Shown here piece after piece: positions 20,150 through 46,771 of a DNA stretch of 64,000 bases. A program made the position numbers and the translations under genes. Below the pieces are notes generated by a model that saw nothing but the letters and a program-made list of their open reading frames with translations, had not been told where the DNA came from and did no database searches. The stretch comes from Candidatus Aminicenantes bacterium (lineage in GTDB: Bacteria; Acidobacteriota; Aminicenantia; Aminicenantales; JAFGBC01). The stretch spans positions 736,001 to 800,000 of the forward strand of contig OY969696.1 in NCBI GenBank assembly GCA_963702005.1, given 5' to 3'. The stretch's first letter is position 1, and every line of letters starts with the position of its first letter.

Positions 20150-22184
20150 TCAGAAGCTCCGCGCGCAGATCCCGCCGCCCGCGGTCCCGACGTAGATCTT
20201 GCGGGCGGCGCCGTCGACCTGGATCGAGTTCACGCTCTTGACCGGCAGGTCGCCGGAGAGGTCCGTCCAGGTCGCCCCCTTGTCGGCGCTGTGCCAGAGG
20301 CCGTTCCAGTTCCCGACAAAAAGCTCGTTCGGATTGAGCTTGTTGACGGCCAGGCAATCGCCGGAATAGGGCGCGTTGGCGAGCTTGGTCCAGGAGCCGC
20401 CGCCGTCCGTGGAGGCGAAAATGCCTTCCCACCCGGTCGCGGCATAGACCGTGGCGGGAGAGCCGCCGGACACGGCCAGGGCGTCGATCGGGCACCCGGT
20501 CGAGGGCGGGCTCAACGAGGTCCAGTTGGCCCCGCCGTCCGTGCTTTTATGCAGGACCGGCGAGCCGGAGGAGGTCGTGCCGGCGACATAGATCGTCCGG
20601 GTATTGGAGGGGTCGAACGCGGCGGCGCAAGCCTGGCTGTTTTCATCGGTCCGAATCCGGACCTGGGTCCAAGTCAGGCCGCCGTCGGTCGAGATGAAAA
20701 CGCCCATGTAATTTTTGCCGCCGACCACGATGTATCCCGCCGCCAGGACGCGGTTGGGAACGGCCGGGTCGACGACCAGGATCAGCCCCTGGCAGCCGGC
20801 GCCGGGAAGAAGCTGTTGAAAGTTGGCGCCTCCGTCTACAGACCTGTAGACGCGGGGGGTGCTTCAGCCGTAGGTCGAGAGATAAACCCGGTTCGGGTCC
20901 GCGCTGGGGACGGCCAGGTCGGCGATGTTGTCGCTCCCCAGGAAATCGGGGAGCTTCGTCCAGCTCGCGCAGGCGTTCGCGCTCTTGAAAACCCCGACCG
21001 ACGTCGCCGCCGCGTACGCCGTGGCCGGAGCGATCGCCGAGGACGAAGAGCCGGGCATCCGGAACCCCCCGATGTTCGTCGCCAGGATCCCCGCCTGGGA
21101 CGGCAGGAAGGTTTTCCCGGCGCTGGTGCTTTTAAAGACCCCCGCCGTCGCGGAGACGTGAACCGTGCTTCCCGAGATCAAGACCTTCGACGCGAGTCCG
21201 GCGAAGCCGGTCCCGCATTTGGTCCAATCCGTTCCGCCGTTCGTGCTCTTCCAGACTTCCTTGGACCCGCCGCCGTACACGATGCTGGGATGGACCTTGT
21301 TCGAAGGCCAGGGACTCCAGGTAAGCGATATAAGACGGGCTGTTCTGCTTCTTCCAAGTGGTCCCGGAGTTGGCCGATATCGCCACCCCCGCTACCGTGT
21401 TTTGGTAGGACACCAAGATCCGGGAGGGATTCGAGGGGTCGATGGCGACCGTGTAAGCATAGTTGACTATGGTGTGGAGATCGTTCATGAATGCGGGCGT
21501 GACGTTCTTCCAGGCCCCCCCGCCGTTCGTGGAGCGGAAGACGCGGGCGCGATAATTCGAGCCGTCGTAGAAGTACCCGCAGAAGAAAATGGTGGACGGA
21601 TTCTTGGGGGAGATGGCGATATCGCGGCCGTAGGCGTAGCTCGACGTCGCCTCCATCGTCTTATGGCTCCAGGTTTGGCCGCCGTTCGTCGTCATGAAGA
21701 CGGCGAGGCATGTCTTCCAACTGGACGTGTCATAGGTATAACTCCCCGCGACGAAAATGACCTTGGGATTTTGGGGGTTGATGGCGATCCTCCCGGAATA
21801 GCCCTGCCGGTATTGGCCGAACGGAAGCTTCGTGAAGGTCGACCCTTGATCGACCGATTTATAAAGTCCGTCCGAGGCCAGGATATAGATCGTCCGCGGA
21901 TTTTTAGGGTCCAGGACGAAATCGTAAGCGTAATCGCCGAGGATGGACTTGAGGGTCCAGCTCTTGCCGTTGTTGACGGACCGGTACACCAGCCCGCGCT
22001 CGGACACCGCATAAAGCTCGGAGGGCGATTTGAGGTTGCGGGCGATGCCCATGATGTTGCCGCCGGTGGGGCCGAGCTGGGTCCAGACCGCCGCTTGATC
22101 CACAGGGCGGGCGGCGCGCATGCCGGGGCCGCCGATGAGAAGGGCGCCAAGGATTGCCCAGATATAAACGGCCGGTCTTTTCAT
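20150..22184 (-). CDS. Putative selenoprotein 1: exported Asp-box/BNR beta-propeller (~677 aa, Sec at TGA 20864-20866; one extra base near 21300)
   Basis: Reads ...LSTYG-U-STPRVYRSVDGGANFQQLLPGAGC... in frame into ORF 20150..20728; SECIS hairpin 11 nt after TGA; removing one base at 21300/21301 restores AFDKVHPSIVYGG. Confidence 0.85.
20833..20852 (-). promoter_or_regulatory. Bacterial SECIS-like hairpin
   Basis: CGUCUACA-GGUC-UGUAGACG, 11 nt after in-frame UGA. Confidence 0.88.
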
Positions 22185-22323: not shown

Positions 22324-24345
22324 CTAAAACGTCCGCTTCCAGATGCCTCCACCTTGGGTCCCGACGTAGAGGGTGTGGTTCGTCGCGTTGAAAACGAGCT
22401 GATTTACGTACGGAACGGGCAGTCCCTGGCTGACGTCGGTCCAGGTCAGGCCCCGGTTCTGGCTGTAAAAAACGTTCTGGTTGTTTCCGACGAACACTTG
22501 GTTGGGATTGTTCTTGTTGACGGCCACGGCCCGGAAACCGTAGCTGTATGTTGTGAAGGTGCACTTGGTCCAGGAGGTCCCGCCGTTCGCACTCCGCCAG
22601 AGCTCACTGTTGGTCCCGACATAGACGATATTCGAGTCCTGGGGATCGACGGCGATCGCCTGGGGCGGGTATTGAATCCCGTTCGTGATCGCGGTCCAGT
22701 TGACCCCCCCATCCGCGCTCCTATACACGAGAGCGCTAGAGTTGGAGGTATATCCGCCGACGTAGAGGATGTTCGCGTCGCCCGGCGCGACCGCCACCAC
22801 GGTCGATTGGCTGCCCTCTTGGGTGCTGATCCGGATGGGCGTCCAGTTCGTCCCCCCGTCCTTGGAGACGACGATTCCCATCGACGTGACGCTCCCTTGT
22901 TTGACTGATCCGGTAATGATAAGTTGGCTGAAGTTCTGGGGATTCGCGTAGAGGCTTCCGTATCGGCACTCGTAGAGATCGTAAATCTGTTGGAACGTCC
23001 GTCCTCCGTCTACAGACCTGTAGACGAATTCGCCCTGCGGTCAGCCGCTGGGCTTGACATAGATGGTATTGGGATTCGTGGGGTGAACGACGATGCTGGC
23101 GACGAGCGTGCTGCCCACGAATGTTCCGCAGGTCGTCCAGGCCGATCCCCCATTGGCCGTCTTAAAGAGGGCATATCCCGTGATCCCGGCGTAGATGGTG
23201 CTCGGCGAAGAAGGCGAGACGCCTAAAGCCGCGATGTTCGAGCCGCGGATGCCGGCGTGGCTGGGATTCCAGGTGGAGCCGCCGTTCTTGCTCAGGAAAA
23301 TCCCAACCTGGCTTGCCAGGTGGACATTGGACCCGGCGGCCAGGATTATGCGGCTCTCTCCATGGATGCCGTCGCTGTAAGCTTTCCAGGTGATCCCGCC
23401 GTCCGTGCTCTTGAGGACGCTGTAGACGTAATCGAGCTCGCCTCCGGCATAAAGGATCTTGGAGTTGGCGGAATCGGCCGTGATGGAGTACACATACGTG
23501 ATCCCTGGAGTCTGTTGGGCCTTCCAGCTTCCGCCGGCGTTCGTCGTCCGGGCGATGCCGTTGTTGTGGGCCACCCAGGCTTTTTTCGGGTCGTGGGCGT
23601 CTACATAGATGGCGTTACAGGCGGGATAGGTTCCGTCGAAAATCGCGGCGCCGCCGACGCTCGTCCAGGTGCTTCCTCCGTTCTTCGAAACGTAGGCGCG
23701 GCCGGTATCGACGCTGTTCTTATAGTCGTAGCCGCATAGATAAATGTAATTGGGGTTGGCCTTGGCAAAAACGACGTCATATCCATAGCCGGAATCGGCC
23801 GAGTTCGGGAACCTCTTGACGGTCCAAGACGCGCCGCCGTTCGTCGTTTTAGCGACGGCGATATCGCTTTTGTAGTTCACGTTGTCATACCGGTATGACC
23901 CGGCGATCATAATGATCTGGGGATTGGCCGGGTGGACGGCGATCCGGCCGTACCAGCCGGTAAATCCGGCCGGGAATGCGCGAACCGTGAAATTTTTGCC
24001 CTTGTCCGTGCTCTTGTGAAGATAGCCGTAGCTGAGGACGTAGATCGTGCTCGGGGTCTTGGGATCGACAGCGAGGTCGTAGATCGCCTGGGAGACGATG
24101 GATTGGCGCGTCCAGCTCGCGCCGCTGTTCGTGGATCTCCAAACCTGACTCGGCCAGCTCGAGCTCGCGGCATAGAGCTCGGCCGCCGACTTGGGATTCC
24201 GGGCCAGGCCGCGGATATCCCCTCCGTAGGGGCCGACCGGGGTCCAGGAACCGGCCCGGTCGGGCCGCTCGATCGGGGCGGAGCCGCGCCCGAAGAGGAA
24301 GACGGCGCACAGGACCGCCAGGATGATGACGACGGCTTTTTTCAT
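22324..24345 (-). CDS. Putative selenoprotein 2: exported Asp-box beta-propeller (673 aa, Sec435 at TGA 23041-23043)
   Basis: MKKAVVII signal peptide; ...VKPSG-U-PQGEFVYRSVDGGRTFQQIYDLYEC... in frame into ORF 22324..22881. Confidence 0.88.
23007..23026 (-). promoter_or_regulatory. Bacterial SECIS-like hairpin
   Basis: CGUCUACA-GGUC-UGUAGACG, 14 nt after UGA. Confidence 0.88.
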
Positions 24346-24441: not shown

Positions 24442-26463
24442 TTAAAACGTCCGCTTCCAGATGCCTCCACCTTGGGTCCCGACGTAGAGGGTGTGGTTCG
24501 TCGCGTTGAAAACGAGCTGGGCTACGTACGGAACGGGCAATCCCTGGCTGACGTCGGTCCAGGTCAGGCCTCGGTTCTGGCTGTAGAAAACGCCCTGGCT
24601 GGACCCGACAAACACCTCGTTGGGGTTGTTGTTGTTGACGGCCACAGCATCGAAATTGTAGGCGTTGGTCGGGAACGTGCATTTCGTCCATGAGGCCCCG
24701 CCGTTCGAACTCCGCCAAACTTCCCAAAAGGTCCCAACATAGACGATGTTCGGATCCTGGGGATCGATGGCGATAGATTGGGGCACGTATTGGATTCCGT
24801 TCGTGACGGAGGTCCAGTCAACCCCTCCGTTCACGCTCTTATAGACAAGCCCGGTATAGGTAGCGCTCTGGCCGCCGACATAGAGGAGGTTAGCGTTGCT
24901 GGGCGCGACCGCCGCGACGTTCGATTGGCTGCCGTCCTGGCTGCAGATTTTGACCGGCGTCCAACTCGACCCCCCGTTCGTCGAGAACACGATTCCCATC
25001 GAGGTTACGCCCCCCTGCTTGACCGAGCCCGTGATCAGGAGGAAGTTGATGTTCTGGGGGTTCGCGTAAAGGTTTCCGTACCGGCATTCGTAGAGATCGT
25101 AAATCTGCTCGAATTTCCGTCCTCCGTCTACAGACCTGTAGACGAATTCGCCCTGGGGTCAGCCGCTGGGCTTGACGTAGATGGTGTTCGGGTTCGAGGG
25201 ATGGACGACCACGCTGGCGACGAGATCGCTGCCGTAGAATTCGGTACAGGGCGTCCAGGCGGAACCCCCGTTGACCGTCTTGAGCAGAGCGTAGCCTTGG
25301 ATTCCGGTGTAAATCGTGTTCGGCGAGGAAGGGGCGATGGCGAAGGCTTTGATATTTGCCGCCCGGATTCCGTTGTGGCCGGGGTTCCAGGTCGTGCCGC
25401 CGTTCTTGCTCAAGAAGATTCCCGCTTGCGTCGCCTGGTGGACCTTGGAGCCGGCGGCCAATATTTGGCGACATTCTCCGTAGAGGCCGGTGCTCGAAGC
25501 CTTCCAGGCATTACCCCCGTCGGTGCTCTTGAGGCTGCTGTAGACCAAATTGTACTTGCCGCCCGCGTAGAGGATATTCGGGTTGGAGGAATCGGCCGCG
25601 ATGGCCGTAACATGCGTGATCTGGGGCGTCTGCTGGGCCTTCCAGCTCCCGCCGGCGTTCGTGGTCCGGGCGATGCCGCTGTCATGGCCCACCCAGGCTT
25701 TTTTCGGGTCGCGGGGATCGACGTGAATGGAGTAGCAGGCAGGGTAGCTGTTGTTGAAGACGGCCGACGAGCCGACGCTCGCCCAGGTGCTCCCGCCGTT
25801 CTTGGAAACGAAGACCCGCGCGGCTGTGACGCTGTTTTTCTGATCATACCCACAGAGATAAATGTAATTGGGGTTGCTTTTGGCGAATACGATGCCGCGG
25901 CCATAACCATAGTCGGTCAGATTGGAAAGTCTTTTGAGCGTCCAGGTCGCGCCGCCGTTCGTCGTCTTGGCGACGGCGATTTCGGAATGCCAATCGGCGG
26001 TGTTGTAATAATAAGACCCGACGACCATGATAATCTTGGGATTAGCCGGGTGGACGGCGATCCGGCCGTTGTAGGACTGGAAATCGTCCGGGAACCGATG
26101 GTTCGAGAAGGTCTTGCCTTTATCCGTGCTCGTGTAGAGATAACTTTCGCTGAGGAGGTAAATCGTGCTCGGGGTCTTGGGGTCGATGGCGAGGTCGTAA
26201 ATCCATTGCATGACGATCGATTGGCGCGTCCAGCTGGCGCCGCTGTTCGTGGATCTCCAAATCTGGCTCGGAGAACTCGAGCTCACGGCGTAGAGTTCGG
26301 CCGCCGACTTGGGATTCCGGGCCAGGCCTTGGATATCCCCTCCGTAGGGGCCGAGCGGGGTCCAGGAACCAGCCCGGTCGGGCCTGTCCGCCGGGCCGGG
26401 GCTGCGCCCGAATAGAAAGACGGCGCACAGGACCGCCAGGATGATGACGACGGCTTTTTTCAT
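24442..26463 (-). CDS. Putative selenoprotein 3: exported Asp-box beta-propeller (673 aa, Sec435 at TGA 25159-25161)
   Basis: Same length as paralog 2; ...VKPSG-U-PQGEFVYRSVDGGRKFEQIYDLYEC... in frame into ORF 24442..24999. Confidence 0.88.
25125..25144 (-). promoter_or_regulatory. Bacterial SECIS-like hairpin
   Basis: CGUCUACA-GGUC-UGUAGACG, 14 nt after UGA. Confidence 0.88.
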
Positions 26464-28679: not shown

Positions 28680-28819
28680 GGACCCTCCGTCGGAAGCCGC
28701 GTTCCTTTTATCCTGGCTGAATTATAGGGAATTCTCCGCCCGGCGGTCAAGAAACCGCGGAAAAAAGCCGTTCTCTCCTCTTGACAAGCCGCGGGGGTTT
28801 CAATAACTTAGGTAAAGCC

Positions 28820-29432: not shown

Positions 29433-30842
29433 ATGAAAGAATCTCTTTTTCGGCTGATCCCATCTGTGGACGCCCTCCTCAATCATCCGGAGGCGCGCCG
29501 GCTCGCCGAGGCGTACGGGCGGCCCTTGGCCTTGGACGCCGTCCGCGACGAGCTCGAGGCGGTCCGGGCCGAAATCCAAACGGCCGGCGCCGCATCATCC
29601 TTGGCCGAGAAAGACCTTGCCCCGGAGGCCTTGCTCGACCGAGTCCGGGCGCGGCTCGAGCGGAAGCTCGCCCCCTCGCTGGGACGCACGATCAACGCGA
29701 CCGGGATCGTCATCCATACCGGGCTGGGGCGGGCCGTCCTGGCTCCCGAGGCGCGGGAGGCCCTGGCGCGCGTGTCCCAAGGATACTCGCAGCTCGCCGT
29801 GGATCTTGAGACAGGTCAGCGCGGCCATCGCGACGTCCATTACGCCTCCCTTCTCCGCGAGCTGACCGGCGCCGAGGCCGGTTTCGCCGTCAACAACAAC
29901 GCCGCGGCGACCGTCCTCCTTCTCAACACCCTGGCCAAAGGCAAGGAGGTCATCCTCTCGCGCGGCCAGCTTGTCGAGATCGGGGGTTCGTTCCGGATGC
30001 CCGACGTCATGGAGACGTCGGGGGCCGTCCTGCGCGAGGTCGGGACGACCAACAAGACCCATCTCCGCGACTACGAGGCGGCGATCTCGGACCGGACCGG
30101 CATCCTCCTTCGCGTCCACCACTCGAACTACCGGATCATGGGCTTCGCCGAGGAGCCGGGGATCGAGGAGCTGGTCGAGCTCGGCCGCAAGCACGGCCTC
30201 CCCGTCGTCGACGATATCGGAAGCGGGGCGCTGGTTGACCTCAAAGATTACGACCTCGAGACCGAGCCACTCGTCCAGCGGAGCGTCCGGGCCGGCGCCG
30301 ACGCCGTCTGCTTCTCGGGCGACAAGCTCATCGGCGGGCCCCAGTCGGGGATCATCGTCGGCAGGGCCAAGGTCGTCGGGCGCGTCAAGAAAAACCCGCT
30401 GGCCCGCGCTTTCCGGATCGGGAAGCTGACCGCGGCCGCCCTCGAAGCGACCCTCAAGCTCTTCCTGGACCCGGACCGGCTGAGGGACCGGCATCCCGTC
30501 TACCGGATGCTGGGGCTGGACGCGAAGGAGATCGAACGGCGGGCGCGCGCCGCGTCGGATACGCTGGCGCTCGGCCTGGCCGGGCGGGCCCGCGTTTCGG
30601 TCGTAGAGGACCGGTCCCAGGTCGGAAGCGGCTCGGTCCCGGTTGAGACCCTCCCGACCTTCGTCCTCAAAATCGAATCCGCGTCTCTTCCGGCCGAGGA
30701 GCTGGCCCGCCGGCTGCGGCGCGGCGCCCCGCCCGTCTTCGGCCGCGTCCACAAGGACGCGCTCCTTCTCGACTTTCGGACCGTCTTCCCCGAAGAGGAC
30801 GGCATCGTCATCGACGCCGTCCGGGCGGCCGTCGAACCTTAA
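29433..30842 (+). CDS. selA: L-seryl-tRNA(Sec) selenium transferase
   Basis: [54 protein letters not shown]. Confidence 0.97.
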
Positions 30843-30857
30843 GGGAGAGAACCGGCC

Positions 30858-32063
30858 ATGGTCGACCTCGAAAAGCGCCGCCGGATCATGGGGCGCTCCA
30901 TCAAGCTCGGGCACTGCATCTGCAACCCCAAGGACCCCTGTCCCTGCGACCTGTTCAAGCGGAAGAACGTCTGCCTCTGCGCGGGCGAGCGCGAAGAGGA
31001 GGCGGCCGAGGACGTCGCCCTGACCAAGCTCGTCGAGAACGCGGGCTGCGCCTCCAAGGTCTCCCAGGAATTTCTCAAACAGGCCCTCGAGGGGCTGCCC
31101 GCCGTCTTCGACCCGCGGGTGCTCGTCAGCTCCTCGACTTGCGACGACGCCGGGATCTTCAAGCTCAACAATACGACCGCGCTCGTCCAGACGGTCGACG
31201 TCTTCTCGCCCTGCGTCGACGACCCCTACGTCTTCGGCCAGATCGCCGCGGCCAACTCCGTGAGCGACGTCTATGCCATGGGCGGAAAACCCCTGACGGC
31301 CCTGTCCATTATCGGATTCCCCTCGGACCGGCTCTCGCCCCGGATCATGAACAAGATGCTCCAGGGCGGAATCGACAAGCTCGGCGAGGCCGGGGTCCCC
31401 GTCCTAGGCGGCCACAGCATCAAGGACGCCGAAGTCAAATTTGGGTTCGCCGTCACCGGGGTCGTCCGGCCCGATCGCATCCTGACCAACGACAAGGCCC
31501 GGCCCGGGAACGTCCTTGTCCTGACCAAGCCGATCGGGACGGGGCTGGCCTGCTTCGCCCAACAGCTCGGGAAGGCGGACGCGGCGCTCCTCGAGGCGAC
31601 CGCCCGCTCCATGACCGAGCTCAACGGCCCCGCCGCCGAGGAGGCCGTCAGAGCCGGCGTGCGGGCCGCGACCGACGTGACCGGATTCGGTCTCCTCGGC
31701 CACTTGGCCGAGATGGCTGTCCAGAGCCGGGTCACGGCCGAAATCTGGGCCGAGGAAGTGCCCCTGTTCAAGGGCGTCCTCGACCTCGCCCGCAAGGGGG
31801 TCGTCTCGGGCGCCGTCGAGCGGAACCGGGAATACGCGATGCGCTTCGTGACCAAGGCCCCGGACGTCGGCGAAGAGTGGGAGGCGGTCCTCCTCGATCC
31901 CCAGACCTCGGGCGGTCTTCTTCTTGCCGTTTCCCGGGCGCGCGCGGCCGGGCTCCTCAAGAGGCTCGCGGCGCGGGGGATCGCGTCGGCGCGGATCATC
32001 GGGCGCATCGCAGAGTCGTCCGAGGGAGCGATCCGTGTCCGACTCCGGCCGGAGGGTTCTTAA
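30858..32063 (+). CDS. selD: Selenophosphate synthetase (Cys form) with Cys-rich N-terminal extension
   Basis: [52 protein letters not shown]. Confidence 0.95.
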
Positions 32064-32074
32064 GGGGAGAGGTC

Positions 32075-33998
32075 ATGGCCGGGCTCGACAAAGACCACGT
32101 CATCTTCGGCACGGCCGGCCACATCGACCACGGCAAGAGCTCGCTGGTCAAGGCCCTGACCGGGACCGATCCCGACACGCTTCCTGAAGAAGAAGCTCCG
32201 GGGGATGACGATCGAGCTCGGGTTCGTATTCCTGGACCTCCCCGACTACGAGAAGCAGATCGTCTTCATCGACGTCCCCGGCCACGAGCGGTTCGTCAAG
32301 ACGATGGCGGCCGGGGCCTCGAACATCGACGCCGCCCTCCTGGTCATCGCCGCCGACGAGGGCGTATCGGTCCAAACCCGCGAGCACTTCGACATCCTCC
32401 GTCTCCTCGACGTCCCGCTCGGGATGGTCGTCCTGACCAAGGCCGACCTGGTCGACGCGGACCGGATGGCCGAAGTCCGCGGCGACGTCGTCCGTTTCGT
32501 CGCGGGCTCCTTCCTCGAGGGCGCTCCCCTTCTGGCCGTCTCGTCCGTGACCGGCGCCGGGATCCCCGAGCTCAAAGCGGCCCTGGTTGAGATGGGGCGG
32601 AAAGTGCGGCGGCGGAGCGACACGGGCTTCTTCCGGATGCCGGTCGACCGCGTCTTCACCATCCAGGGCTTCGGCACGGTCGTGGCGGGAACGGTCCTGG
32701 GCGGCGCGGTCGGCGTCGGCGACCGGATCGAGGTTTTTCCCGATCGGCTTCCGGCCCGGGTCCGGGGCGTTCAAGTCCACGGCCGCGGCGCCGAGCGGAG
32801 CGGGATCGGGACACGGACGGCCCTCAACCTGATGGACGTCAAGAAGGAGGATCTGCGGCGGGGACAATGCGTCGCCGCGGCCGGCAGCCTGACGCCGACC
32901 AACCGGCTCGACACGGAGCTTCTCTTGCTGGCCGACGCCGGCAAGGAGCTCAAGCACCGCGAGCGGGTCCGCCTCCACGTCGGGACGGACGAGGTCATCG
33001 CCCGAGTCGTCCTTCTCGACCGGGCCGCGGTCCAGCCGGGCGAGAAGGGCTTTGTCCAGTTCGTCCTAGAGGCGCCGACCGTGGCGCTTCCCGGCGACCG
33101 GTTCGTCATCCGGACCTTCTCGCCGCTGATGACGATCGGAGGAGGCCGGGTCCTCGACCCGACGCCGGGCCGGCACAAACGGTTCGACGATCAGGTCATC
33201 CAGGGGTTGGGCCGGCTCGAAGGGAGCCTCGACGAGGTCGTCGAACAGCTTTTAGTCAAGGCCCGTTTCGCGCCCCAATCTCTGAGCGAGCTGGAGTTGA
33301 GCCTGGGCGGCCGCGCCAAGGAGGTCAAGGAATCCGTCGCCGCGCTCGTCGCGGCGGGGAAGACCGTCGCCGTCCCGTTCGAGAAGGAGGAGCGCTACCT
33401 TCACGCCGGCGCCGCGGCCGAGCTCGCCGGGAGGCTCGTCGGACTCGTCAAGGACTACTTCGAGAAGTTCCCCCACAAGCTGTCGATGCCCCTCGGCGAC
33501 CTCCGCTCCCAGTTCCTGAAGCTGAGCGAGGCGGCCGTCTTCCGGAAACTCCTGGAGGAGCGGGCGGCCCAAGGCGCCTTGGACGCCCAGGGGACCGAGG
33601 TCCGCCTCCCCGAGCGCGGCGTTCGGATGACGGCCCGCGAGCAGGAACTGGCCCGCCGGATCGAGGAGGCCTATCTCAAGGCCGGCTACGACAGTCCGCT
33701 CGATGACGAGCTGTGCCGGACGTTGGGCGCCGAGCCGCCCCTGTTCGAGAAGGTCCTGTTCAGCCTCTACGACCAGAAAAAGCTGATCCGTCTCAACCCC
33801 AAGGTCACCTACCACGTCGATACGGTCGCCAGCATGAAGGCGCTCGTCCAGGAGCACCTCAAACGGAAAGGGGGCATCACGATCGCGGAGCTCCGGGATA
33901 CGATCAAGCTTTCGCGCAAGTACGCGCAGGCCGTCCTCGAGTATTTCGACCGGGTCGGGTTGACCCGGCGCGTCGAGGACCGCCATGTGCTAAAATAG
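32075..33998 (+). CDS. selB: Selenocysteine-specific elongation factor; +1 frameshift near 32186-32194
   Basis: [11 protein letters not shown] in frame from 32075; [20 protein letters not shown] and C-terminal winged helix ([13 protein letters not shown]) in next frame; one extra A in GAAGAAGAAG. Confidence 0.93.
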
Positions 33999-34010
33999 AC
34001 GACGACCCGC

Positions 34011-34106
34011 GGGAGGGTATAGGTTCCGGTGGGCCTTCTGGACTTCAAATCCAGCACGGGGCCGTGAAACGTCCCGGGTGGGTTCAACTCCCACACCTTC
34101 CCGCCA
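34011..34106 (+). tRNA. selC: tRNA-Sec (anticodon UCA)
   Basis: 8-bp acceptor GGGAGGGT/ACCTTCCC, anticodon arm CTGGA-CTTCAAA-TCCAG, long variable arm, T arm GTGGG-TTCAACT-CCCAC, G discriminator and CCA; 96 nt. Confidence 0.97.
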
Positions 34107-36367: not shown

Positions 36368-38833
36368 TTATCGTATGGTCACGGTCGCGGGCGGGCCCTC
36401 GCGGCCCGTTTCCGGATCGACCGCGACAAGCCGGTACGTGTAGGCCTTGGTCTTGTCCACGCCGCGCTCCCGATACTCGAATGTCGCCGCGTCGAGCGAA
36501 GCGACGAGGCGCGGCGTCGTCCCCTCGACCAGGTAGAGCCGGTAGGTCAGCCCGGCGTCGTTGGCAGGATTCCGCCGCCAGTTCAGGACGTTGACGTACT
36601 CGACGAAGAGGAGCGAGCGGTTTTCTTTCTTCGTGCCTTTGAAGTCGAGCGGTTCGTAGATGGTCCGCTGGAATTCGGCCCGGACGGCCAGGTCGCGGTC
36701 GACGGTGACGGTCAAGGGATTCGTCGTCCCCGATGCGTCTCCGCTCCAACCCATGAAATGATAGTTCGAGGCCGCCGTCGCCGTGATGGTCACTTGACTT
36801 CCCGGGCTATGTTTATAGGTTCCGGGAGCGGGCGTCGTCGTGCCGCCCGAGGTCGCGCTGATGACGAGGGCGTACTGGCCGCCCGGCCGGATTTGGCAGA
36901 GGCCTCCGCCCGGGGTCGCGGCGACGAGCGTGCCGGTCCCCTTGACGAAGTCGAGGGCGCTGACCGTTTTCACGATCAGGCCCAGGCTGTAATCGGACCA
37001 GGAACTCCCGAAATCCACGCTCTTCCGGACGCCGGCCCAGCCGCCCGCGTAAACCTGGTTGGGGAGGGCCGGATTGACCGCGATGGCCGTCGTCGAGGCG
37101 GTCAGGCAATGGGTCCAGGTCGCGCCGGAGTCCTCGCTGCGGAAGACGCCGTCGTCGGACGCGGCGTAAATACGGAAGGGCGAGACGGGATCGAGGACGA
37201 GGGCGGTGATGGGAGCCGAAAATACGTTGGTCCCCAGCCCCGTCCAGGTTTCGCCTCCGTCCGATGTCCGGCAAACCGAGCCCAGGCTGTTCTGAGTGCC
37301 TCCGACATAGATGATCTGCTCGTTCGTAGGATGCACCGCGATGGCGCAGACCATCCCGGGATCGGGCAGGAGCTTGGACGCCCAATTGGCCCCTCCATCC
37401 GTCGAGATATACAAGGTGACATTGCTGCCCGGCGGACTGCCTCCCGCGTAAAGATGATCGAAGTTCTGGGAATGAACGACCAGAACATCGAGCTGGCCCT
37501 GCTGCAACAGGCTCGTCCAGCTGTTGCCTCCATCTACAGACCTGTAGATGTAGTCTCCGGACCCTCAGCCCTGGCCGGGCGCGATCATATAAACGGTCCG
37601 GGGGTTGCCGGGATCGACGGCCGCGATATAACCCTGATCGTCGCAGCTGTAAAAATAGGGGAGGAGGGACCAGGTCCGGCCGAAGCTGTCGCTCCGATAG
37701 AATCCGCAGTTGGAAACATTGGCATAAAGGACGTTGGGGTAAGAGGCCGGTACATAGAAGGACGGGACCCGGCAGGCCCGAACCCCGGTTTGACTGGCCG
37801 CCCAGGTCGCGCCCGCGTCCGTGCTGCGGTAGACTCCGGCGTCCGAGCCGAAGAAAACCGAGCTTCCCGCCACGGCCATGCGGCGGCAGTCGCCGAGAAG
37901 ACCCGTTTCGGCGGACGTCCAGTCGATGCCGCCGTCCGTGCTCTTGTAGACCCTTTTCTGATAGCCGGCATAGAGGACGGAGGAATTCGCCGGGTCGATG
38001 GCCAGCCCGTAAGCGCAGCTGGTGTTGGCGCTGCTCTGCCAGGTCTGTCCCGAGTCCGAGGAGCGATAGACGCCCCCTTCGGTCGCGGCGAAGACCCGGG
38101 AGGGATTGTTCGGATCCGTTGCCAGGTCGTAGATCTGGGTTGAGAGCCCGCCCGTGATGTCTTGCCAGGAATCGCCGCCGTTCGTCGTCCGGTAGACGAA
38201 GAATTTAGCCGTCGTGGCGGTCCGGTAAATCCCGCTGACATAAATGACGGCCGGATTCCCGAAATTGACGCAGAGGCTGTGGCTCTCGGCGAGATCCGCG
38301 CCGGGCGAGATTCGCTTGGACGTCCAGGTTTGGCCGCCGTCCGTCGTGCGGGCTAATCCGACCGAGGCCGTCTCGGACGTTATCTGGCCGAGGATGAACA
38401 GGCTGTCGGGATCGCTGGGATGGGCGGCCAGCCGTTCGAAGCTGGTGAAGCCGCGCGGATTCGTGAGCTGCGTCCAGGACGAGCCGCCGTTTCGGGATTT
38501 GAAAAGGGAGAGCCAGCTCATGGCATAGAGGCCGCCGCTTCCCGGAGGGCCGAAGGCGAGGTCCGTGATGGGATCATTGAATAACCCGATCCTCTTCCAG
38601 GTTTTGCCTTCGTTCGCGCTCCGGTAGACCTGGGCCGGCGTCGAATCGAAGACGGCCATGAGATCGTTGGCGTTCGCGGGATTCACGGCCAGGTCGCGCA
38701 GGCCGCCGCCGTCGGGACCGATCGATTTCCAAGCGGGGTTGTCCGCCCCGGCCGGCCGCGGCCGGGTTGGAGCGGCGGGAGGGCCGAGGATGAGCGCGGC
38801 TATCAGGATCGAGAATCCAATTCCTTTTTTCAT
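36368..38833 (-). CDS. Putative selenoprotein 5: exported Asp-box beta-propeller with C-terminal InlB B-repeat-like and Fn3-like domains (821 aa, Sec423 at TGA 37565-37567)
   Basis: ...APGQG-U-GSGDYIYRSVDGGNSWTSLL... in frame into ORF 36368..37507; FMGWSGD and YTYRLVAVD tail. Confidence 0.88.
37531..37550 (-). promoter_or_regulatory. SECIS-like hairpin with compensatory pair
   Basis: CAUCUACA-GGUC-UGUAGAUG; G-C to A-U change on both arms; 14 nt after UGA. Confidence 0.9.
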
Positions 38834-38966: not shown

Positions 38967-39050
38967 TCCCCGGCCCCGGATTGATTTGTGGAAGCTTTTC
39001 TGGTAAACAAGGGAGACAGGAACCGACATCGCGGGAAGGAGGTAGGGCTC

Positions 39051-41033
39051 ATGCAGGCTTGGAAGCGCCGATTCCCGGCGGCCCTCATCAAGATCCTGAT
39101 CCTCGGCGCGCTCGCCTTTCTTTCGGTCAAGCCGGCCGCCGCCCAGAATCCGATCGACTTTACCCTCAAGGACGCGGACGGCAATGACGTCCACCTCCGC
39201 GACTTCCTGGGCAATAAGGTCGTCCTGGTCGATTTCTGGGCGACCTGGTGCGTCCCCTGCGTCAAGGAGCTGTCCCACTTCCAGCGCTTCTACGAGTCCT
39301 ATAAGGACAAGGGTTTGGTCGTCCTGGCCATTTCCGAGGACGGCCCCGAGACCGTGGCCATGGTCAAGCCCTTCCAGCGGCGCTACAAGTACACCTTCAC
39401 CATCCTCCTCGACTCCGAATCCAAGGTCCTGGCCCTCTACAACCCGAGGGTCGTCTTGCCCTACACGCTCCTCATCGGCCGCGACGGCCGGATCGCCAAG
39501 ATCCACCAGGGCTACAGCCTGGGCGACGAGAAAATGCTCGAGCAGGAGATCGTCGAGCTTCTCGAGCCCAAGGCGGAAGTCAAGGCGAGCCGGATGTCGC
39601 TGAGCGCCAGCGAATCCTTCCTGTACCGCCATTTCACCGACAAGGATTATGTCGACGACTCGCGCGAGGGCCGGCCCAACCAAATCCTCAACAAGTTCGA
39701 CCTGACCCTTAACGCGGGCGATCTCCTGGTCGGGATCAGGGCCGACGCGAACCTCGACTTCTCGCCGATGCGGCACGATTACAGCCTGGCCAAGCGGTTC
39801 GTCGAGTTCAACAAATGGAACTTCAGCCTGCGGGCCGGGGATTTCTATTACTCGGTGGGGCGGGGGCTCGCCTTCAGCCTGCTCAAGATCTTCGAGAAGG
39901 AGGGCCTCGAGTACATCATCGACACGACCATCGAGGGCGGGAAGCTCAGCTACGGCGGGAACAAGTTCGAAGCCTGGGGGGGCTGGGTCGAACGCGAGCG
40001 GACGTCGCGGGAGGCGCCGATCGTCCGGGACCTGGTCGGGGGGCTGAGCGTCGGGACCCGCGTCTTGAGCTTCGCCGACGTCAACCTCAACGTCGTCGGG
40101 GCGCGGCTCGAGCCGGGCTCCGCGTTGGGGAGCCGGAACGTCTCCATGGAAACCCTGACCTTCTCGGCGGCCAAGATCGGCAATTTCGCCAAGTTCTACG
40201 GCGAGGGCCTCCTCATCCAGAAGGAAAAATTCTATGTCCCGAACACGATCTACGGCCACGGCGTTTATCTCGAGTCGGGGCTGTTCTTCGGGAACCTGAC
40301 TCTTTTATTCGAGTTCAAGGATTACCAGGACCTCGACTTCGAATACAACCGGCCGCCCCTGCTTGAGAGCGAGCAGCTGGCCGTCGTCGCCAACCAGTTC
40401 GTGACCTCGGCCAAGGACTCGACCGGCGCCGCGATCCGGGCCGATTGGTATTTCCCGGGGGCCTCGACCCTTCTCTTTGCCAAGGGCAGCTGGATCGACG
40501 ACCTGCCCGGCCACTTTCCGCGGACGATCACCCATTTTTTCGGGGGCGTCGAGAAGAAGTTCAAGGAGACGGGCTGGCTGACCCTGATCGGCGGCTACCG
40601 AAACGAGCAGGCGAGCTCCCTGGTTTTTTACTATACGGCGGGCCGGACCTTCCATTGGCAGGGGAATCTCAGCTATCCCCTGACCAGGCGTCTGAGCCTC
40701 GAGCTCGACATCGAGGCCAAGGACTTCGACGGAACGGTCCCCTTCGGAGGGAGGTTTACCGATTATTTCGAACGGCGCTCGTACCTGTCCTTGAGCTACT
40801 CCCCCCGTCTCATCCTGACCGTCCTCTACGACCGGACGGACGACCCCGAGATCCTGGCCGTCAAGAACAAGAAGGATTGGTGGGGGACGCAGCTCGAGAT
40901 CAAACTATCCCACGCCAAGTCGATCCGGATCTTCTACGGGTCCAACAAGGGGGGCGTCAAGTGCGCGGGCGGCGTCTGCAAATTCTTCCCGCCCTTCGAA
41001 GGGTTGAGGATCGACGGCGTCCTTAGGTTCTGA
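39051..41033 (+). CDS. TlpA-like thioredoxin (WCVPC) fused to outer-membrane beta-barrel with C-terminal Cx4C (DUF6029-like)
   Basis: Signal peptide, DFWATWCVPC, alternating beta strands, GGVKCAGGVCKF, terminal Phe. Confidence 0.78.
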   Translation: MQAWKRRFPAALIKILILGALAFLSVKPAAAQNPIDFTLKDADGNDVHLRDFLGNKVVLVDFWATWCVPCVKELSHFQRFYESYKDKGLVVLAISEDGPETVAMVKPFQRRYKYTFTILLDSESKVLALYNPRVVLPYTLLIGRDGRIAKIHQGYSLGDEKMLEQEIVELLEPKAEVKASRMSLSASESFLYRHFTDKDYVDDSREGRPNQILNKFDLTLNAGDLLVGIRADANLDFSPMRHDYSLAKRFVEFNKWNFSLRAGDFYYSVGRGLAFSLLKIFEKEGLEYIIDTTIEGGKLSYGGNKFEAWGGWVERERTSREAPIVRDLVGGLSVGTRVLSFADVNLNVVGARLEPGSALGSRNVSMETLTFSAAKIGNFAKFYGEGLLIQKEKFYVPNTIYGHGVYLESGLFFGNLTLLFEFKDYQDLDFEYNRPPLLESEQLAVVANQFVTSAKDSTGAAIRADWYFPGASTLLFAKGSWIDDLPGHFPRTITHFFGGVEKKFKETGWLTLIGGYRNEQASSLVFYYTAGRTFHWQGNLSYPLTRRLSLELDIEAKDFDGTVPFGGRFTDYFERRSYLSLSYSPRLILTVLYDRTDDPEILAVKNKKDWWGTQLEIKLSHAKSIRIFYGSNKGGVKCAGGVCKFFPPFEGLRIDGVLRF

Positions 41034-41111: not shown

Positions 41112-41867
41112 TCACAAGTATTTTTGGATGATGTTATCGACCTCGGCTTTGATGTAACCCTCCCGCTTGTAGCGGATGGTCCGGTTCCGGTCCATGATGT
41201 GGGGGAGGGGGATCGAATTCCGCCGGAATTGATCATAGATGGCGTGGCTGTTGTCGTCCAGGACCGGGAAGGTCAGTTTATAAGTCTCGGACCAGGTCTT
41301 GGCGCTCCCCTCGATGACGCATAGGATGTACATGAATCCCTTGCCCTTGAGGCTCTGATAGAAGGACTCGGCCGTTTCGGCCTTCTCCCGGCAGGGGCCG
41401 CACCAGTCGGCCGAGAAATCGAGCAGGATGACCTTGCCGTGGTAGGCCGAGAGAGTCACGTCGGCGCCGTTCTGGTCCTTGGCAGTGAAATCGAGGGCGA
41501 TAGACCCTTCCTCGGTCCCGTAGGTCGCGGCCGAGGCCGTGAAGGCCAGGTCGCTCCGCGAAGCCGACCCGACCTCATAGTCGGAGGGGCTGAAGGCGTA
41601 GCCGAGCCGCGAAGGCGTGATGATGTACCCTCCGCCGGGAAGATCGCTGAAGCTGAACCGTCCGTCGCTTCCCGTCGTCGTGGACTTAGAGGCGTCCCAG
41701 GACAAGTAGACGTCGATACCGGGAAGGGCCTGGCCGCCCTGGCTGACGGGGCCGCTGAAGCTCAGCAGGGACCCCTCGGGCCCGGTCGTCGTGGAAGTCT
41801 TGCAGGCCCCCAAGGCCAGGAGCCCGATCGCGAGGGCGAGAATGGCGACCCGGTTCGTCCCGTTCAT
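41112..41867 (-). CDS. Lipoprotein with carboxypeptidase-regulatory-like domain and TlpA/redoxin domain
   Basis: Lipobox LGA|C, TGSDGRFSF, DFSADWCGPC. Confidence 0.82.
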   Translation of the reverse strand: MNGTNRVAILALAIGLLALGACKTSTTTGPEGSLLSFSGPVSQGGQALPGIDVYLSWDASKSTTTGSDGRFSFSDLPGGGYIITPSRLGYAFSPSDYEVGSASRSDLAFTASAATYGTEEGSIALDFTAKDQNGADVTLSAYHGKVILLDFSADWCGPCREKAETAESFYQSLKGKGFMYILCVIEGSAKTWSETYKLTFPVLDDNSHAIYDQFRRNSIPLPHIMDRNRTIRYKREGYIKAEVDNIIQKYL

Positions 41868-42009: not shown

Positions 42010-42903
42010 TCAGCCGGCTTTGTCCGGGGCCGGCGCGGAAGCGGCCGGAGCCCTGGCCCCCAGGAATTCGTATTGGATCGAGCCCATGGCGCAGGAGTCC
42101 ACGCATTTGAGGCAGCGGATGCAGTCCGGCGAATTGGGCCGCTTGTAGACCTCGATGTCCAGCGGGCAGGACCGGGCGCACTTGCCGCAGGAGGTGCAGG
42201 TTCCCTCGTCGATCGTCATCCGGAATACGGAGGCCTTGTTGAAAAGCCCGAAGATGGCGCCCAGTGGGCAGGCCGTCCGGCAGAACGGCCTCATGCTGAA
42301 GACCATCCAGATCAGGAACAGTACCAGGACGCCCATCTTCCACTTGAACATGAAGGCGAGCTGGGCCCTGATCCCGGCGTTGAGGGCCGCGAGGGGGATG
42401 CCGGCGATCAAGGTCCCGTCGGGGCAGATCCACTTGCAGAACCAGGTCTGGCCGTAGCCGAACTCGTCGACGAGGAGGAGGGGCAGCGCGAAGACGAACA
42501 GGACCGTGATGATGTAGCGGAGGTAGGTCAGGACGCGGGGGATACGGAGCTTGGGCGATGGAATTTTATGGACGAGCTCTTGGACGAGGCCGAACGGGCA
42601 GAGCCAGCCGCAGGGAATGCGGCCGACCAGGCTCCCCACGGCCCCTAAGATCCCGAGGACGTAGAAACCGAATTGGTGGACGGCGACCGAGAGGTTGAAG
42701 CGGAGGGCCCCCAGGAAGTTCTGAAGGGAGCCGACCGGGCAGGCCCCGATCGCGGACGGGCAGGAGTAGCAGTTGAGGACGGGCAGGCAGATCCCCTTGA
42801 TGCCGCCCTGGAAGATCTCGCCCTTGAGCCAGTTGGGGAGGTAGGCGTTGAAGCCCAGGACGGCGGCGGCTTGGACCCATTTCCGGGTGCGTTGTCTGGC
42901 CAT
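42010..42903 (-). CDS. Membrane 4Fe-4S binding protein (NapH/RdxA-like)
   Basis: CxxxCP motifs (CGWLCPFG, CKWICP, CRTACPLG), TM helices, two CxxCxxCxxxC ferredoxin motifs. Confidence 0.9.
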   Translation of the reverse strand: MARQRTRKWVQAAAVLGFNAYLPNWLKGEIFQGGIKGICLPVLNCYSCPSAIGACPVGSLQNFLGALRFNLSVAVHQFGFYVLGILGAVGSLVGRIPCGWLCPFGLVQELVHKIPSPKLRIPRVLTYLRYIITVLFVFALPLLLVDEFGYGQTWFCKWICPDGTLIAGIPLAALNAGIRAQLAFMFKWKMGVLVLFLIWMVFSMRPFCRTACPLGAIFGLFNKASVFRMTIDEGTCTSCGKCARSCPLDIEVYKRPNSPDCIRCLKCVDSCAMGSIQYEFLGARAPAASAPAPDKAG

Positions 42904-42925: not shown

Positions 42926-43060
42926 TCAGCCGATCCCGATGCAGTCCAGGCAGATCGTCACGGCCTTCTCCAGGACGGTCTGGAATTCGCCGAGCTTGAG
43001 GCCGATCAGGATCAGGACGACCGACGCCGCGAACAGGATCCAGGGCAGCTTCCGTTTCAT
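42926..43060 (-). CDS. Small CXXC membrane protein (CD1871A-like), 44 aa, below ORF-track cutoff
   Basis: MKRKLPWILFAASVVLILIGLKLGEFQTVLEKAVTICLDCIGIG; ATG overlaps upstream stop; sits before 4Fe-4S gene as typical for the family. Confidence 0.85.
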   Translation of the reverse strand: MKRKLPWILFAASVVLILIGLKLGEFQTVLEKAVTICLDCIGIG

Positions 43061-43674
43061 TTACCGCTCCCCTTGACGAGAGCGCCGATGATCTCGTCAA
43101 GCTCCGTGATGTGCTCTTTTTTAAACCCGATATGGGCGTGACTGATGACGCCGGTTGCGTCGATGAGATAGACGACCGGAATTTCCTGGACCTTATAGCG
43201 GCCCGCCATGTCCTTGGTCGTCTGGATGACGTCGGCCGCGGCCGCCCGGTCGGGGGGATCGGCCAGCATCGGGTAGCTGATCTTGAGCTTCCCGTAGAAG
43301 GGCTTGACGACCCTGGACCCCTTCTGGTCGAGGGCGATTCCGAACAGTTGAAGGCCGCCCTCGGCCTGGCCGGGCTTGGGCTGATACTTTTCGTAGAGTT
43401 GCTGCATATAGGGCATGGCCGCCCGGCAGGGGACGCACCAGGTCGCCCAGAAGTCGACCAAAACGCCGGCCGGGTAGGTCTTGGCCTGTTCCGGCTTGCC
43501 GTTGACGACCTTCTCGGTCAGCAGGCAGAGCCGGCCGTTTTCGAGGAAGACGGTATAGGTGACGTCGTCGACGCCCTTGAGGCTGAAGGGAATGAGGCGA
43601 TCGCCTTTGGCCAGGATGCCGAATACGGCCGGGGCCATCGCCAGGACTAGGGCGAGGATGATGAGCCGCTTCAT
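43057..43674 (-). CDS. TlpA family disulfide reductase, exported
   Basis: Signal peptide, DFWATWCVPC, EIP cis-Pro loop. Confidence 0.88.
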   Translation of the reverse strand: MKRLIILALVLAMAPAVFGILAKGDRLIPFSLKGVDDVTYTVFLENGRLCLLTEKVVNGKPEQAKTYPAGVLVDFWATWCVPCRAAMPYMQQLYEKYQPKPGQAEGGLQLFGIALDQKGSRVVKPFYGKLKISYPMLADPPDRAAAADVIQTTKDMAGRYKVQEIPVVYLIDATGVISHAHIGFKKEHITELDEIIGALVKGSGK

Positions 43675-44278: not shown

Positions 44279-46771
44279 TCAGCGGACCGTGATCGTAGCT
44301 TCCTGACCTTCGCGGCCCGTCTTATCGACGGCCAGGAGCGCGTAGGTATAGGTCTTGTCCTTTTCGACCCCGCGCTGCCGGAACTCGAGGATGGAAGAAT
44401 CGAGCTCGGCCAGGAAACGGCGCGTCCCCCCTTCGGCGAGGTAGATCCGGTAGGTTCGGATGTCGACGTTGGCGGGGTTGGCCCGCCAGCTCAGGACGTT
44501 GATGTATTCGGCCGAGATGACGCCGCGGTTGATTTTTTTGACGCCGGTCGCGTCGAGGGGCGGATAGATGCTTCGGATGAAACCGGCCGCCAAGGACTTA
44601 TCGGAGTCCATCAGGAGCGTCAGGGGATTAACCGTCCCGGTCGCGCTCCCCGTCCAGCCCGTGAACTCGAAGTTGGGTTCGGGGAGGGCCGTGACCGAGA
44701 CCGAGCTATTCATGTCGTAGGAATGATTCCCCGGCGCGGGATCGGTCGTCCCGCCCGTCGTCGCGCTGAGGCTGAGGACGAAGCGGCTCGACTGACGATA
44801 GCGGAAGACGCCGCCCCCGTTCGTCCCGACGAACAGGGTTTTGGTCGTGGGATTGACGCCCAGGGTGAGAACGTTCCGGACCGGCAGGGTGGCATTGAGG
44901 TCCGTCCAGTCCAGGCCGCGGTTCGCGCTGGCATAGACGCCGTCCGTGCCGGCGATGGTGATGGAAGAGGTCGCGACGGGATCGATATAAATGCAGGTCA
45001 CCGGAGTGTCGGCCAGTTTGGTCCAGGTCGCGCCGCCGTTCTCGCTCCTGAACAAGCCCCCGTTCGTGCCGGCGTAGATCGTCGCCGCAGCAGCCGGATC
45101 GACGGCCAGATCCTGGATCGGGTCGGCGAAAATTCCGGCGGCGAGTTTGGTCCAGCTCGTCCCCCCGTCGAGCGATTTATAGAGGGCGCCGGCCGAGTTG
45201 ACCGTGCCGCCCAGATAGACGGTCCTGTCGTTCGCCGGATCGATCGCGACGGCGAGCGCCGCCGCGGGGGTCGAACCGGCGACCGCGGAATCCGAGACCA
45301 AGTACGTGTCCCAGGTAGTCCCGGCGTCGAGGGTTTTATGCATCGCCATGACCTGAACCCCCGACACGCTCGTGTATCCGGCGATGAACAGGTGGTTGGG
45401 ATTGCGCTCGTTGAGAAGAAGGTCCTTAAAGCTCTTGGTCAACAAATGCTCCCAGCTCTTACCGCCGTCTACAGACCTGTAGACGTCATCCGCCCCTCAG
45501 CCTCCGGCCAGAATGTAGAGCTTGTCCGGATTGGTCGGAGTGACGACGATCCGCAGGACTTTGTCGCAGCGATAGAAGTCCGGCAAGCGCTGCCAGGAAG
45601 TTCCGCTGCTGAGGCTCCGGTAGAAGCCGTTGGCTTGGAACTCGATGTAGATGGTGCCGGCCGCGGAGGGGGCAACCCCCAAGGCCGGGATGAGGGACGC
45701 CTGGATGCCGGAATGGGAGGCTTCCCAGGTTTGCCCCCCGTCCGTGCTCTTATAAACGCCGCCCGTGGAGCCGAAGTAAATCGCCGAAGCCGTGATAACG
45801 ATGGCCCGGCCGGCTCCGTAAAGGCCGACGCCGAACTCCGTCCAGTTGACGCCGCCGTCCACGCTTTTATAGCACTTCTTATCGTACCCGGCGTAGAGGA
45901 CGTCCGGGTTGGCCGGGTCGACGGCCAGCGTGTAGCCGAAGGCGAAGCCCTCGTTCCTCTGCCAGGACCGTCCGCCGTCCGTGCTGCGGTAGATTCCCCA
46001 GCTCGTCGCCGCCCAGACCTTGTCCGGGTTCGTCGGGTGGACGGCCAGGGAGGTGACCAGGTCCGTGATCTCCGTCCCGATGATCGACCAGGACGTCCCT
46101 CCGTTCACCGACTTGTACATCCGATAGATGGCGGCGACCCCGGTCGTGAGCGAGCCGGCCAGGTAGAGGGTCGACGGGCTCGAGGGGGCGACGGCCAAAG
46201 CCGTCGCCGAGCCTGTGTCCGAGCTCGGGCTGAGCTTGACGGTCGTCCAGGTCCGGCCGCCGTCCGCGGTCTTGAAGAAAGCCATGCAGTTCTTCCCCGC
46301 TAAGGCGCCGTAGGCCCCCGTGGCGTAGACGATATTCGAGTTCGAGGGGTGGATGGCCAGCTTGCCGCCGACGGAGAAGCGGTTGGCGCCGAAGGCAAAT
46401 TCGGACCAGGACACGCCCTTGTCCTCCGATTTGAGGATGCCGGTATCGGTCAGGATGTAAGCGATGTTGGCGTCGCGATTGACGGCCAGGTCCAGGGCCG
46501 TACGCTCGAACGTCGCCCGGCGTGCCCAGCTCCGGCCTCCGCTTGTCGTCCAAAAGACCTGGCTGAACCCGGTGAGCCCGGAGAGGGCCAGAAGCTCGCT
46601 TTGTTTTGAGGGGTTCAGCGCGAGCGTCGTGATGCTCCCCCCTTCCGGTCCCAGCGCTTCCCAAGCGGCGGCCGCCGGCCGGAATCTCGGGGTGGATACC
46701 CTCTCCCCCGCGCCGAACGCGAGGCTGAAGAATACCGAGAGACCGATTCCGATGGCGCCGATCTTTCTCAT
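44279..46771 (-). CDS. Putative selenoprotein 6: exported Asp-box beta-propeller with InlB B-repeat-like and Fn3-like tail (830 aa, Sec425 at TGA 45497-45499)
   Basis: ...ILAGG-U-GADDVYRSVDGGKSWEHLLTK... in frame into ORF 44279..45445; first gene of apparent operon with redox genes. Confidence 0.88.
45466..45485 (-). promoter_or_regulatory. Bacterial SECIS-like hairpin
   Basis: CGUCUACA-GGUC-UGUAGACG, 11 nt after UGA. Confidence 0.88.

Follow-up and report, generated by a model that had tools for sequence, protein, structure and literature searches.

The window analysed here, a stretch of 64,000 nucleotides from the genome of a Candidatus Aminicenantes bacterium, contains a cluster of paralogous propeller genes. 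Midway within this cluster lie selA, a selD-like gene, selB and a gene for tRNA-Sec (Table 1). The gene under study is encoded on the minus strand and contains one in-frame TGA only. When this TGA is translated as selenocysteine (Sec), the frame yields a single protein of 821 residues with a signal peptide and many Asp-box blades. GC3 amounts to 0.80 and 0.82 on the two sides of the TGA, both values being of coding type. This means that the UGA lies inside an open reading frame whose coding signal runs on downstream, as is the case for UGA codons served by a selenocysteine insertion sequence (SECIS). DNA contigs from three wetland metagenome runs span the site.

Table 1. Sec machinery, propeller genes and associated elements in the window
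Feature	Position	Strand	Observations
selA (selenocysteine synthase)	29433..30842	+	PF03841, E 1e-142
selD-like gene	30858..32063	+	AIRS and AIRS_C domains; place between selA and selB
selB	32205..33998	+	TIGR00475 over cut-off; PF09107 (SelB-wing_3), E 6e-19
tRNA-Sec, anticodon UCA	34011..34106	+	Rfam RF01852, 73.8 bits
Propeller gene, very probable selenoprotein; secreted Sortilin-Vps10/BNR (GH74-like) double beta-propeller	36368..38833	-	InlB B-repeat-like domain at C-terminus
In-frame UGA, read as Sec423	37565..37567	-	Open frame and coding-type GC3 on either side
Probable SECIS hairpin, CAUCUACA-GGUC-UGUAGAUG	37531..37550	-	Codes for the Asp-box peptide (Y)I-Y-R-S-V-D(G); 22 nt from UGA to the start of the loop
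Paralog, 831 aa	44279..46771	-	TGA 45497-45499; hairpin 45466-45485 (CGUCUACAGGUCUGUAGACG)
Paralog, 678 aa	26643..28679	-	TGA 27357-27359; hairpin 27326-27345 with 7-bp stem, loop AGUUCC, peptide YSSVD
Paralog, 673 aa, closely related to 22324..24345	24442..26463	-	TGA 25159-25161; hairpin 25125-25144
Paralog, 673 aa	22324..24345	-	TGA 23041-23043; hairpin 23007-23026, stem extendable to 10 bp
Sixth paralog	about 20150..22184	-	Frame change near 21297-21301; TGA 20864-20866; hairpin 20833-20852

The propeller proteins match Pfam PF15902 with E-values of 1e-34 to 1e-47, and three of the four tested exceed the cut-off of NF045728. Together with the Asp-box repeats and a double seven-bladed fold, this places them among the Sortilin-Vps10/BNR (GH74-like) proteins. 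A structure prediction of residues 31-640, based on a 30-row alignment, modelled the read-through protein as one continuous double propeller (pLDDT 91.4, pTM 0.89), in which the TGA position falls inside a blade. The top Foldseek matches of the model are the GH74 xyloglucanases 5fkt, 6p2m, 1sqj and 2cn3 (E-values down to 1.5e-23, TMq up to 0.73), from which the propeller protein nevertheless differs considerably in sequence (15-19% identity).

The 16-mer core of the hairpin occurs in the window in five exact minus-strand copies and one variant, where 0.01 would be expected. All six genes concerned encode Sortilin-Vps10/BNR propellers, and in all six an in-frame TGA lies 4 or 5 codons upstream of the hairpin. 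The variant copy (27328), with its loop AGUUCC and peptide YSSVD, had been overlooked by the sequence-only reading of this DNA. Across the genome (4.31 Mb, single contig) there are 14 copies, ten with the exact 16-mer and four variants. A hairpin-blind search for propeller open reading frames that can be joined across one TGA returned the same 14 genes and two unrelated artefacts; all 14 carry the hairpin, 13 of them perfectly and one with seven of the eight pairs. In two paralogs GUUC replaces GGUC, and in one the loop-closing pair is lost as well. A sister genome has five such genes, and the hairpin follows the TGA in all five.

Anatomy and coding of the hairpin

Five codons past the TGA, the 20-mer CATCTACAGGTCTGTAGATG (37550-37531, minus strand) carries the codons ATC TAC AGG TCT GTA GAT for I-Y-R-S-V-D. 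A flanking C and G complete the hairpin, which has a perfect 8-bp stem and a GGUC loop. The sequence-only reading had described this hairpin as written by the codons for V-Y-R-S-V-D, using AGG-TCT-GTA, which is borne out, with I-Y-R-S-V-D in the copy of this gene. Its statement that these codons are atypical also holds. Genome-wide, GTA makes up 2.1% of Val codons, TCT 5.2% of Ser codons and AGG 11% of Arg codons, and the commonest codons in the 425 ordinary Asp-box-like motifs of the genome are AAG, AGC, ACG and GAC. TCT encodes the Ser in 13 of these 425 motifs, and other YRSV boxes are spelled with ordinary codons such as TAC CGG TCC GTC. Four copies in the window share the identical 20-mer CGTCTACAGGTCTGTAGACG, as had been claimed; the accompanying claim of strongly differing protein flanks applies only across three lineages, the copies at 23009 and 25127 being close paralogs.

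The hairpin is predicted by RNAfold for each of the six copies in the window. Its stability compared with shuffled sequences is unexceptional (z of -0.35 to -2.6), so the evidence for the hairpin comes from conservation and context and not from folding energy. Rfam returned only chance hits and no SECIS family, both for the window at the gathering threshold and for the surroundings of the hairpin at E up to 10.

The G and U of the apical loop of a SECIS contact SelB. In our alignment of 24 elements (see below) the apical loop contains both nucleotides throughout, being GGUC in 22 and GUUC in two. Spacers of 4, 5 or 6 codons place the start of the loop 19, 22 or 25 nt after the UGA, which is inside the range of 16-37 nt given for bacterial SECIS apical loops in a review (PMC10778597).

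On the E. coli K-12 sequence, the TGA of fdhF is followed after 11 nt by GGTTGCAGGTCTGCACC, which contains CAGGTCTG; this confirms that the fdhF hairpin begins 11 nt after the UGA and has the same 8-mer, as the sequence-only reading had stated. The two elements share their location in the open reading frame directly after the UGA, the 11-nt spacing and an identical apex, CAGGUCUG, with its GGUC loop. They differ in that fdhF has a bulged U (GGUUGCA/UGCACC), whereas the propeller hairpin is a perfect 8-bp helix. The bulged U defines the E. coli fdhF element and not the bacterial SECIS in general. The frame across the apex also differs (AGG TCT in the propeller genes, GCA GGT CTG in fdhF), the propeller spacer varies between 4, 5 and 6 codons, and the propeller element encodes a structural repeat of an unrelated protein. 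To our knowledge, every bacterial SECIS sits in coding sequence and dual coding is the rule, so dual coding is unremarkable in itself here.

Pairing, synonymous constraint and restriction to UGA contexts

To compare the hairpins across genes, we aligned 24 distinct elements, comprising 14 from this genome, five from the sister genome, four from other Aminicenantes and one from Zixibacteria. The 19 elements from the two genomes of the genus were ascertained without reference to the hairpin, while those from outside the genus come from a search whose pattern kept the core fixed. Of all stem cells, 99% are paired; when the 3' arm is slid as a control, pairing falls to 15-55% of cells, and the covariation score was reached by none of 500 shuffles. 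Two of the eight stem pairs change on both sides, a compensatory pattern as found in SECIS elements: pair 2 is G-C in 18 elements and A-U in six, and pair 6 is A-U in 22 and U-A in two. Pair 5 is U-A in 23 elements and a U.G wobble in one.

The hairpin of the gene under study is an A-U variant at pair 2, and is the copy in which the sequence-only reading had noted a G-C to A-U change on both arms ('paralog 5'). In the protein tree its sister, with support of 100/100, is an ortholog from the sister genome that has G-C at this pair, so that at least one of the compensatory double changes is recent. The U-A form of pair 6 marks one clade, in which the encoded peptide changes from Y..V to F..E. 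The GUUC loop has two origins on the tree. Counting independent events on a tree whose backbone is unresolved gives at least two for the G-C/A-U exchange and one for the A-U/U-A exchange. These events are few, and the covariation is real but thin.

Synonymous sites point in the same direction. Pairwise differences at third positions are 0-0.16 inside the hairpin, as compared with 0.58-0.65 for the pair of codons that immediately precedes the stem and 0.51 and 0.71 for the two Gly codons that directly follow the hairpin. The sequence-only reading had proposed that selection acts on RNA structure, and had named synonymous-site constraint and covariation as the checks. The comparison supports such selection through the synonymous freeze, the near-complete pairing, the G-C/A-U switch between orthologs and the TGA-less homologous boxes, which do not form the hairpin.

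At the homologous Asp-box, eight contiguous pairs are found in 19 of 20 Sec rows and at most two in all 19 TGA-less rows, which are paralogs and relatives aligned at this position. None of the 425 Asp-box-like motifs without an upstream stop elsewhere in the genome forms the hairpin. The number of contiguous pairs in these motifs is zero in 323, one in 72, two in 22 and three in four, with one motif each at four, five, six and seven pairs; the 7-pair case is an unrelated motif. We also searched the 246 genomes of the order with a pattern in which the stem positions were left free (N). It matched in five genomes, pairing was kept in 20 of 20 matches, and a reversed control pattern had no match in the 246 genomes.

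The search was extended to a set with one genome per species, where 80 of 83 matching stretches were analysed. A TGA lies 4-6 codons upstream in the Asp-box frame in seven of these, which belong to Aminicenantes and one Zixibacteria genome. All seven have at least seven pairs, compared with two of 39 open TGA-less Asp-box frames. In metagenomes, a degenerate DNA pattern matched at least 125 stretches, of which 80 were analysed; among the matches listed, at least seven pairs are formed in 37 of 38 TGA-preceded cases and in none of 14 TGA-less frames. The remaining TGA-preceded metagenomic copy (L164) has an A.C mismatch at pair 2. Public genomes and metagenomes together, again among the matches listed, give at least seven pairs in 44 of 45 TGA-preceded and two of 53 TGA-less cases. 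In rare TGA-less Asp-boxes elsewhere (L151 and L124) the same hairpin is present by chance. The sequence-only reading would have been refuted by a palindrome equally common in Asp-boxes with no upstream UGA. These counts, including those from the organism's own genome, do not refute it but speak in its favour; the palindrome is essentially confined to TGA-preceded Asp-boxes.

Decoding of the UGA

We consider it highly likely that this hairpin belongs with the bacterial SECIS elements of the type known from E. coli fdhF, and that SelB delivers Sec at the UGA through it. The proposed process would begin when a ribosome reaches the UGA in the propeller mRNA. SelB carrying Sec-tRNA(Sec) would bind the GGUC-capped hairpin about 11 nt past the UGA and deliver Sec, giving rise to the full-length 14-blade propeller. 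Since a bacterial SECIS must lie directly after its UGA, the element overlaps the Asp-box, the next element of the blade. The rare codons AGG, TCT and GTA, used to write V/I-Y-R-S-V-D, make the arms complementary, and a change in one arm is matched in the other even at an amino-acid cost (Y..V to F..E). Selenium would accordingly be incorporated at the UGA of the propeller genes, and the propeller family of this uncultivated wetland bacterium very probably carries selenocysteine.

The genome is equipped for such a process, possessing selA, selB, tRNA-Sec and a selD-like gene, the latter assigned by its AIRS domains and position. The selB product includes SelB-wing_3, the C-terminal winged-helix domain family that we take to bind the SECIS. 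Within the order, selB scores over the cut-off in 100 of 246 genomes, including all five with the hairpin pattern. In one pattern-bearing genome the distance between selB and the propeller gene is 7 kb, and in a genome of the same genus that lacks the pattern (83% complete) no selB scores over the cut-off. A single Sec, a SECIS in the open reading frame and the presence of selA, selB, selD and tRNA-Sec in the organism are features that the propeller family would share with known prokaryotic selenoprotein families.

We also looked for other users of this machinery. A loose genome scan for in-frame TGAs in coding-looking sequence gave 181 candidates and was too noisy, while a stricter scan with a hairpin filter gave 34, including ten propeller copies and two thioredoxin-like proteins. 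The latter are candidate selenoproteins with a UGSC motif, and their GGU(C)-capped hairpins lie 18 nt after the UGA. A Sec-type formate dehydrogenase was not found in the genome, where the best TIGR01591 match scores 153.9 bits against a cut-off of 666 and has no internal stop. With these two further candidates and no Sec-type formate dehydrogenase found, the propeller family seems to be the principal user of the Sec machinery that this genome encodes.

Three other explanations need to be weighed against insertion of Sec. The UGA might be read as a standard amino acid, such as Gly or Trp, by a suppressor, with the hairpin acting as a general stimulator of read-through. Gly would suit the G-G-U-G context of the codon. 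We nonetheless regard this as very unlikely, given that TGA terminates other genes of the window, that the apex and spacing of the hairpin match the SelB-binding fdhF element, and that selB and tRNA-Sec(UCA) are next door, with the pattern found only in selB-positive genomes.

The TGA might instead be a true stop that separates genes for an N-terminal and a C-terminal propeller, the hairpin serving translational coupling or mRNA stability. This is how standard gene callers treat the site, and two of 29 database matches (P0003 and P0004) are gene calls ending exactly at the TGA with ...ILAGG; the lack of a Cys homolog among the sequences found would also fit. Such a stop would however fall inside a blade and leave a downstream piece without a start codon for 19 codons, whereas the frame and its coding-type GC3 run across the TGA. 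The TGA moreover occupies the same column in 14 paralogs, in other families and in a second phylum, the read-through protein is predicted to fold as one propeller, and the Sec machinery adjoins. Taken together, a true stop is scarcely credible.

Just as hard to sustain is the idea that the 20-mer is kept by gene conversion, or as a DNA-level palindrome for protein binding or recombination, with no selection on RNA: although one genome holds many copies, several of them clustered, and a palindrome is the same on both strands, third positions diverge at once to either side of the hairpin, the copies are separated by branch lengths of 0.4-2.3 changes per site, the same constraint is seen in single-copy genes of other families, in Zixibacteria and in metagenomes, the position relative to the TGA is fixed and strand-specific, and the one U.G wobble can pair only in the sense RNA.

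The proposed Sec site and the origin of the family

If the hairpin is a SECIS, the structural model indicates where Sec would act. It would be located in a blade, in the loop that joins strands 2 and 3 (model residues 390-396). Most members have a conserved Cys in the motif FYRCD, which in the gene under study is Cys397, 26 residues upstream of Sec, in the loop entering strand 1 of the same blade; the model is least confident in these two loops. Members with Ser at this position have a Cys about 24 residues downstream instead. Judging from the topology, Sec and the conserved Cys would face the same side, which suggests a selenylsulfide or a ligand-binding site. The neighbouring genes encode several AhpC/TSA thioredoxin-fold proteins, a DsbD_N-like protein and a 4Fe-4S protein. 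Thioredoxin-fold neighbours are a likeness to redox selenoproteins, many of which have them.

Selenoproteins usually have homologs with Cys in place of Sec, and nearly all catalogued families do so according to an excerpt of PMC12013277. The propeller family differs in this respect. No Cys is present at the Sec column in the 19 TGA-less rows of paralogs and relatives, which have Ser, Gly or a gap, or in any of the 29 database matches, so the usual Sec/Cys pairing is not seen here.

Prokaryotic selenoproteins have been catalogued in 119 families and subfamilies (PMC13188914, 2026). The main text of this catalogue mentions none of the terms BNR, propeller, sialidase, glycosyl, Sortilin, Ycf48, WD40, xyloglucan or repeat, and none of the accessions PF15902, PF02012, PF13088, PF14870 or NF045728; its supplements could list the family. 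A BNR/Sortilin/GH74-like selenoprotein was likewise not found in the literature searched, which included the main texts of recent papers. What looks new is therefore not the dual coding but the selenoprotein family, a GH74/Sortilin-like double propeller. We know of no member of GH74 or Sortilin-Vps10 that has been reported with Sec.

How could such a family arise? The proposal in the sequence-only reading that a protein repeat motif has been co-opted as the SECIS is a fair one, as codons for the consensus peptide V-Y-R-S-V-D can form a palindrome and the hairpin is found in L151 and L124. Because this palindrome can be perfect and GGUC-capped, a UGA arising a few codons upstream of it could be rescued by SelB at once. 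We tentatively propose that the Asp-box was a pre-adapted proto-SECIS and that the family was born without a Cys ancestor, then multiplied around the sel operon to 14 copies and uses Sec and the nearby conserved Cys in a redox or ligand site on the face of the secreted propeller. This scenario is possible, though we hold it to be doubtful as a whole.

The findings have several implications. The propeller element may work with E. coli SelB, as its apex is identical to that of fdhF, and might hence serve recombinant Sec insertion. Selenoprotein finders that need Cys homologs would miss the propeller family, and standard annotation cuts each of its genes in two. RNA pairing appears to dictate protein sequence here, as the A-U/U-A switch turns Y..V into F..E, which would make this an unusually clear natural case. 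The arrangement also suggests how new Sec sites could arise from a widespread protein repeat. Taken together, the propellers would comprise an apparently uncatalogued family of secreted, carbohydrate-enzyme-like and highly expanded selenoproteins in a phylum known only from metagenomes. If true, this expanded family would be the main client for Sec in this lineage of Aminicenantes.

Hairpin variants inside and outside the Sec propellers

Asp-boxes that carry the complete 8-bp GGUC hairpin with no TGA upstream occur at two loci, one in a Roseivirgaceae MAG (L151) and one in a Cytophagales MAG (L124). These hairpins are natural 'proto-SECIS' elements, chance products of the codons for IYRSVD/IFRSED. 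The most divergent Aminicenantes copy, found in Aminicenantes bin34 (L142; CP070750), is a member with a spacer of six codons and a Cys two residues ahead of the hairpin codons (GGGUGGNPCGIYRSVDGG).

A GUUC loop, which replaces Arg by Ser in the peptide (YSSVD), has arisen twice independently in place of GGUC, in genes that are otherwise intact. Either this loop is tolerated by SelB, or these copies are on their way to losing Sec insertion. In the sixth Sec propeller paralog, base 21300 is missing from contigs of two wetland runs (X2 and X3). This leaves two readings of the frame change, an error in the assembly or a pseudogene particular to the strain.

Features in the window and on the source-genome contig (G000:C1)
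Feature	Location	Strand	Remark
Sixth Sec propeller paralog	window 20150-22184	-	frame change near 21297-21301
GUUC-loop Sec propeller hairpin	window 27326-27345
GUUC-loop Sec propeller hairpin	G000:C1:3599661-3599680
Thioredoxin-like candidate selenoprotein	G000:C1:2163945 (L160 270-1793)	-	G-U-G-S-C motif
Thioredoxin-like candidate selenoprotein	G000:C1:1013502	+	G-U-G-S-C motif
DsbD_N-like, three AhpC/TSA, Fer4_5 genes	window 28781-29386, 38988-41033, 41112-41867, 42010-42903, 43057-43674

Further candidate selenoproteins and selB copies

Both thioredoxin-like candidates possess SECIS-like hairpins, with the GGU(C) cap 18 nt past the UGA. At least one of the two, that at L160, is secreted and has a helical-repeat part at its C-terminus. 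In G059, another genome of the same order, selB is matched over its full length, with nearly equal scores, at two separate sites on the genome's only contig, and the Sec machinery there may be duplicated.

Possible redox genes around the sel operon

The sel operon and the Sec propeller genes have other genes interspersed among them, which encode a DsbD_N-like protein, three AhpC/TSA thioredoxin-fold proteins and a Fer4_5 4Fe-4S protein. A possible role for this set is that of a redox supply line outside the cytoplasm, which would serve the Sec propellers and the sel operon.
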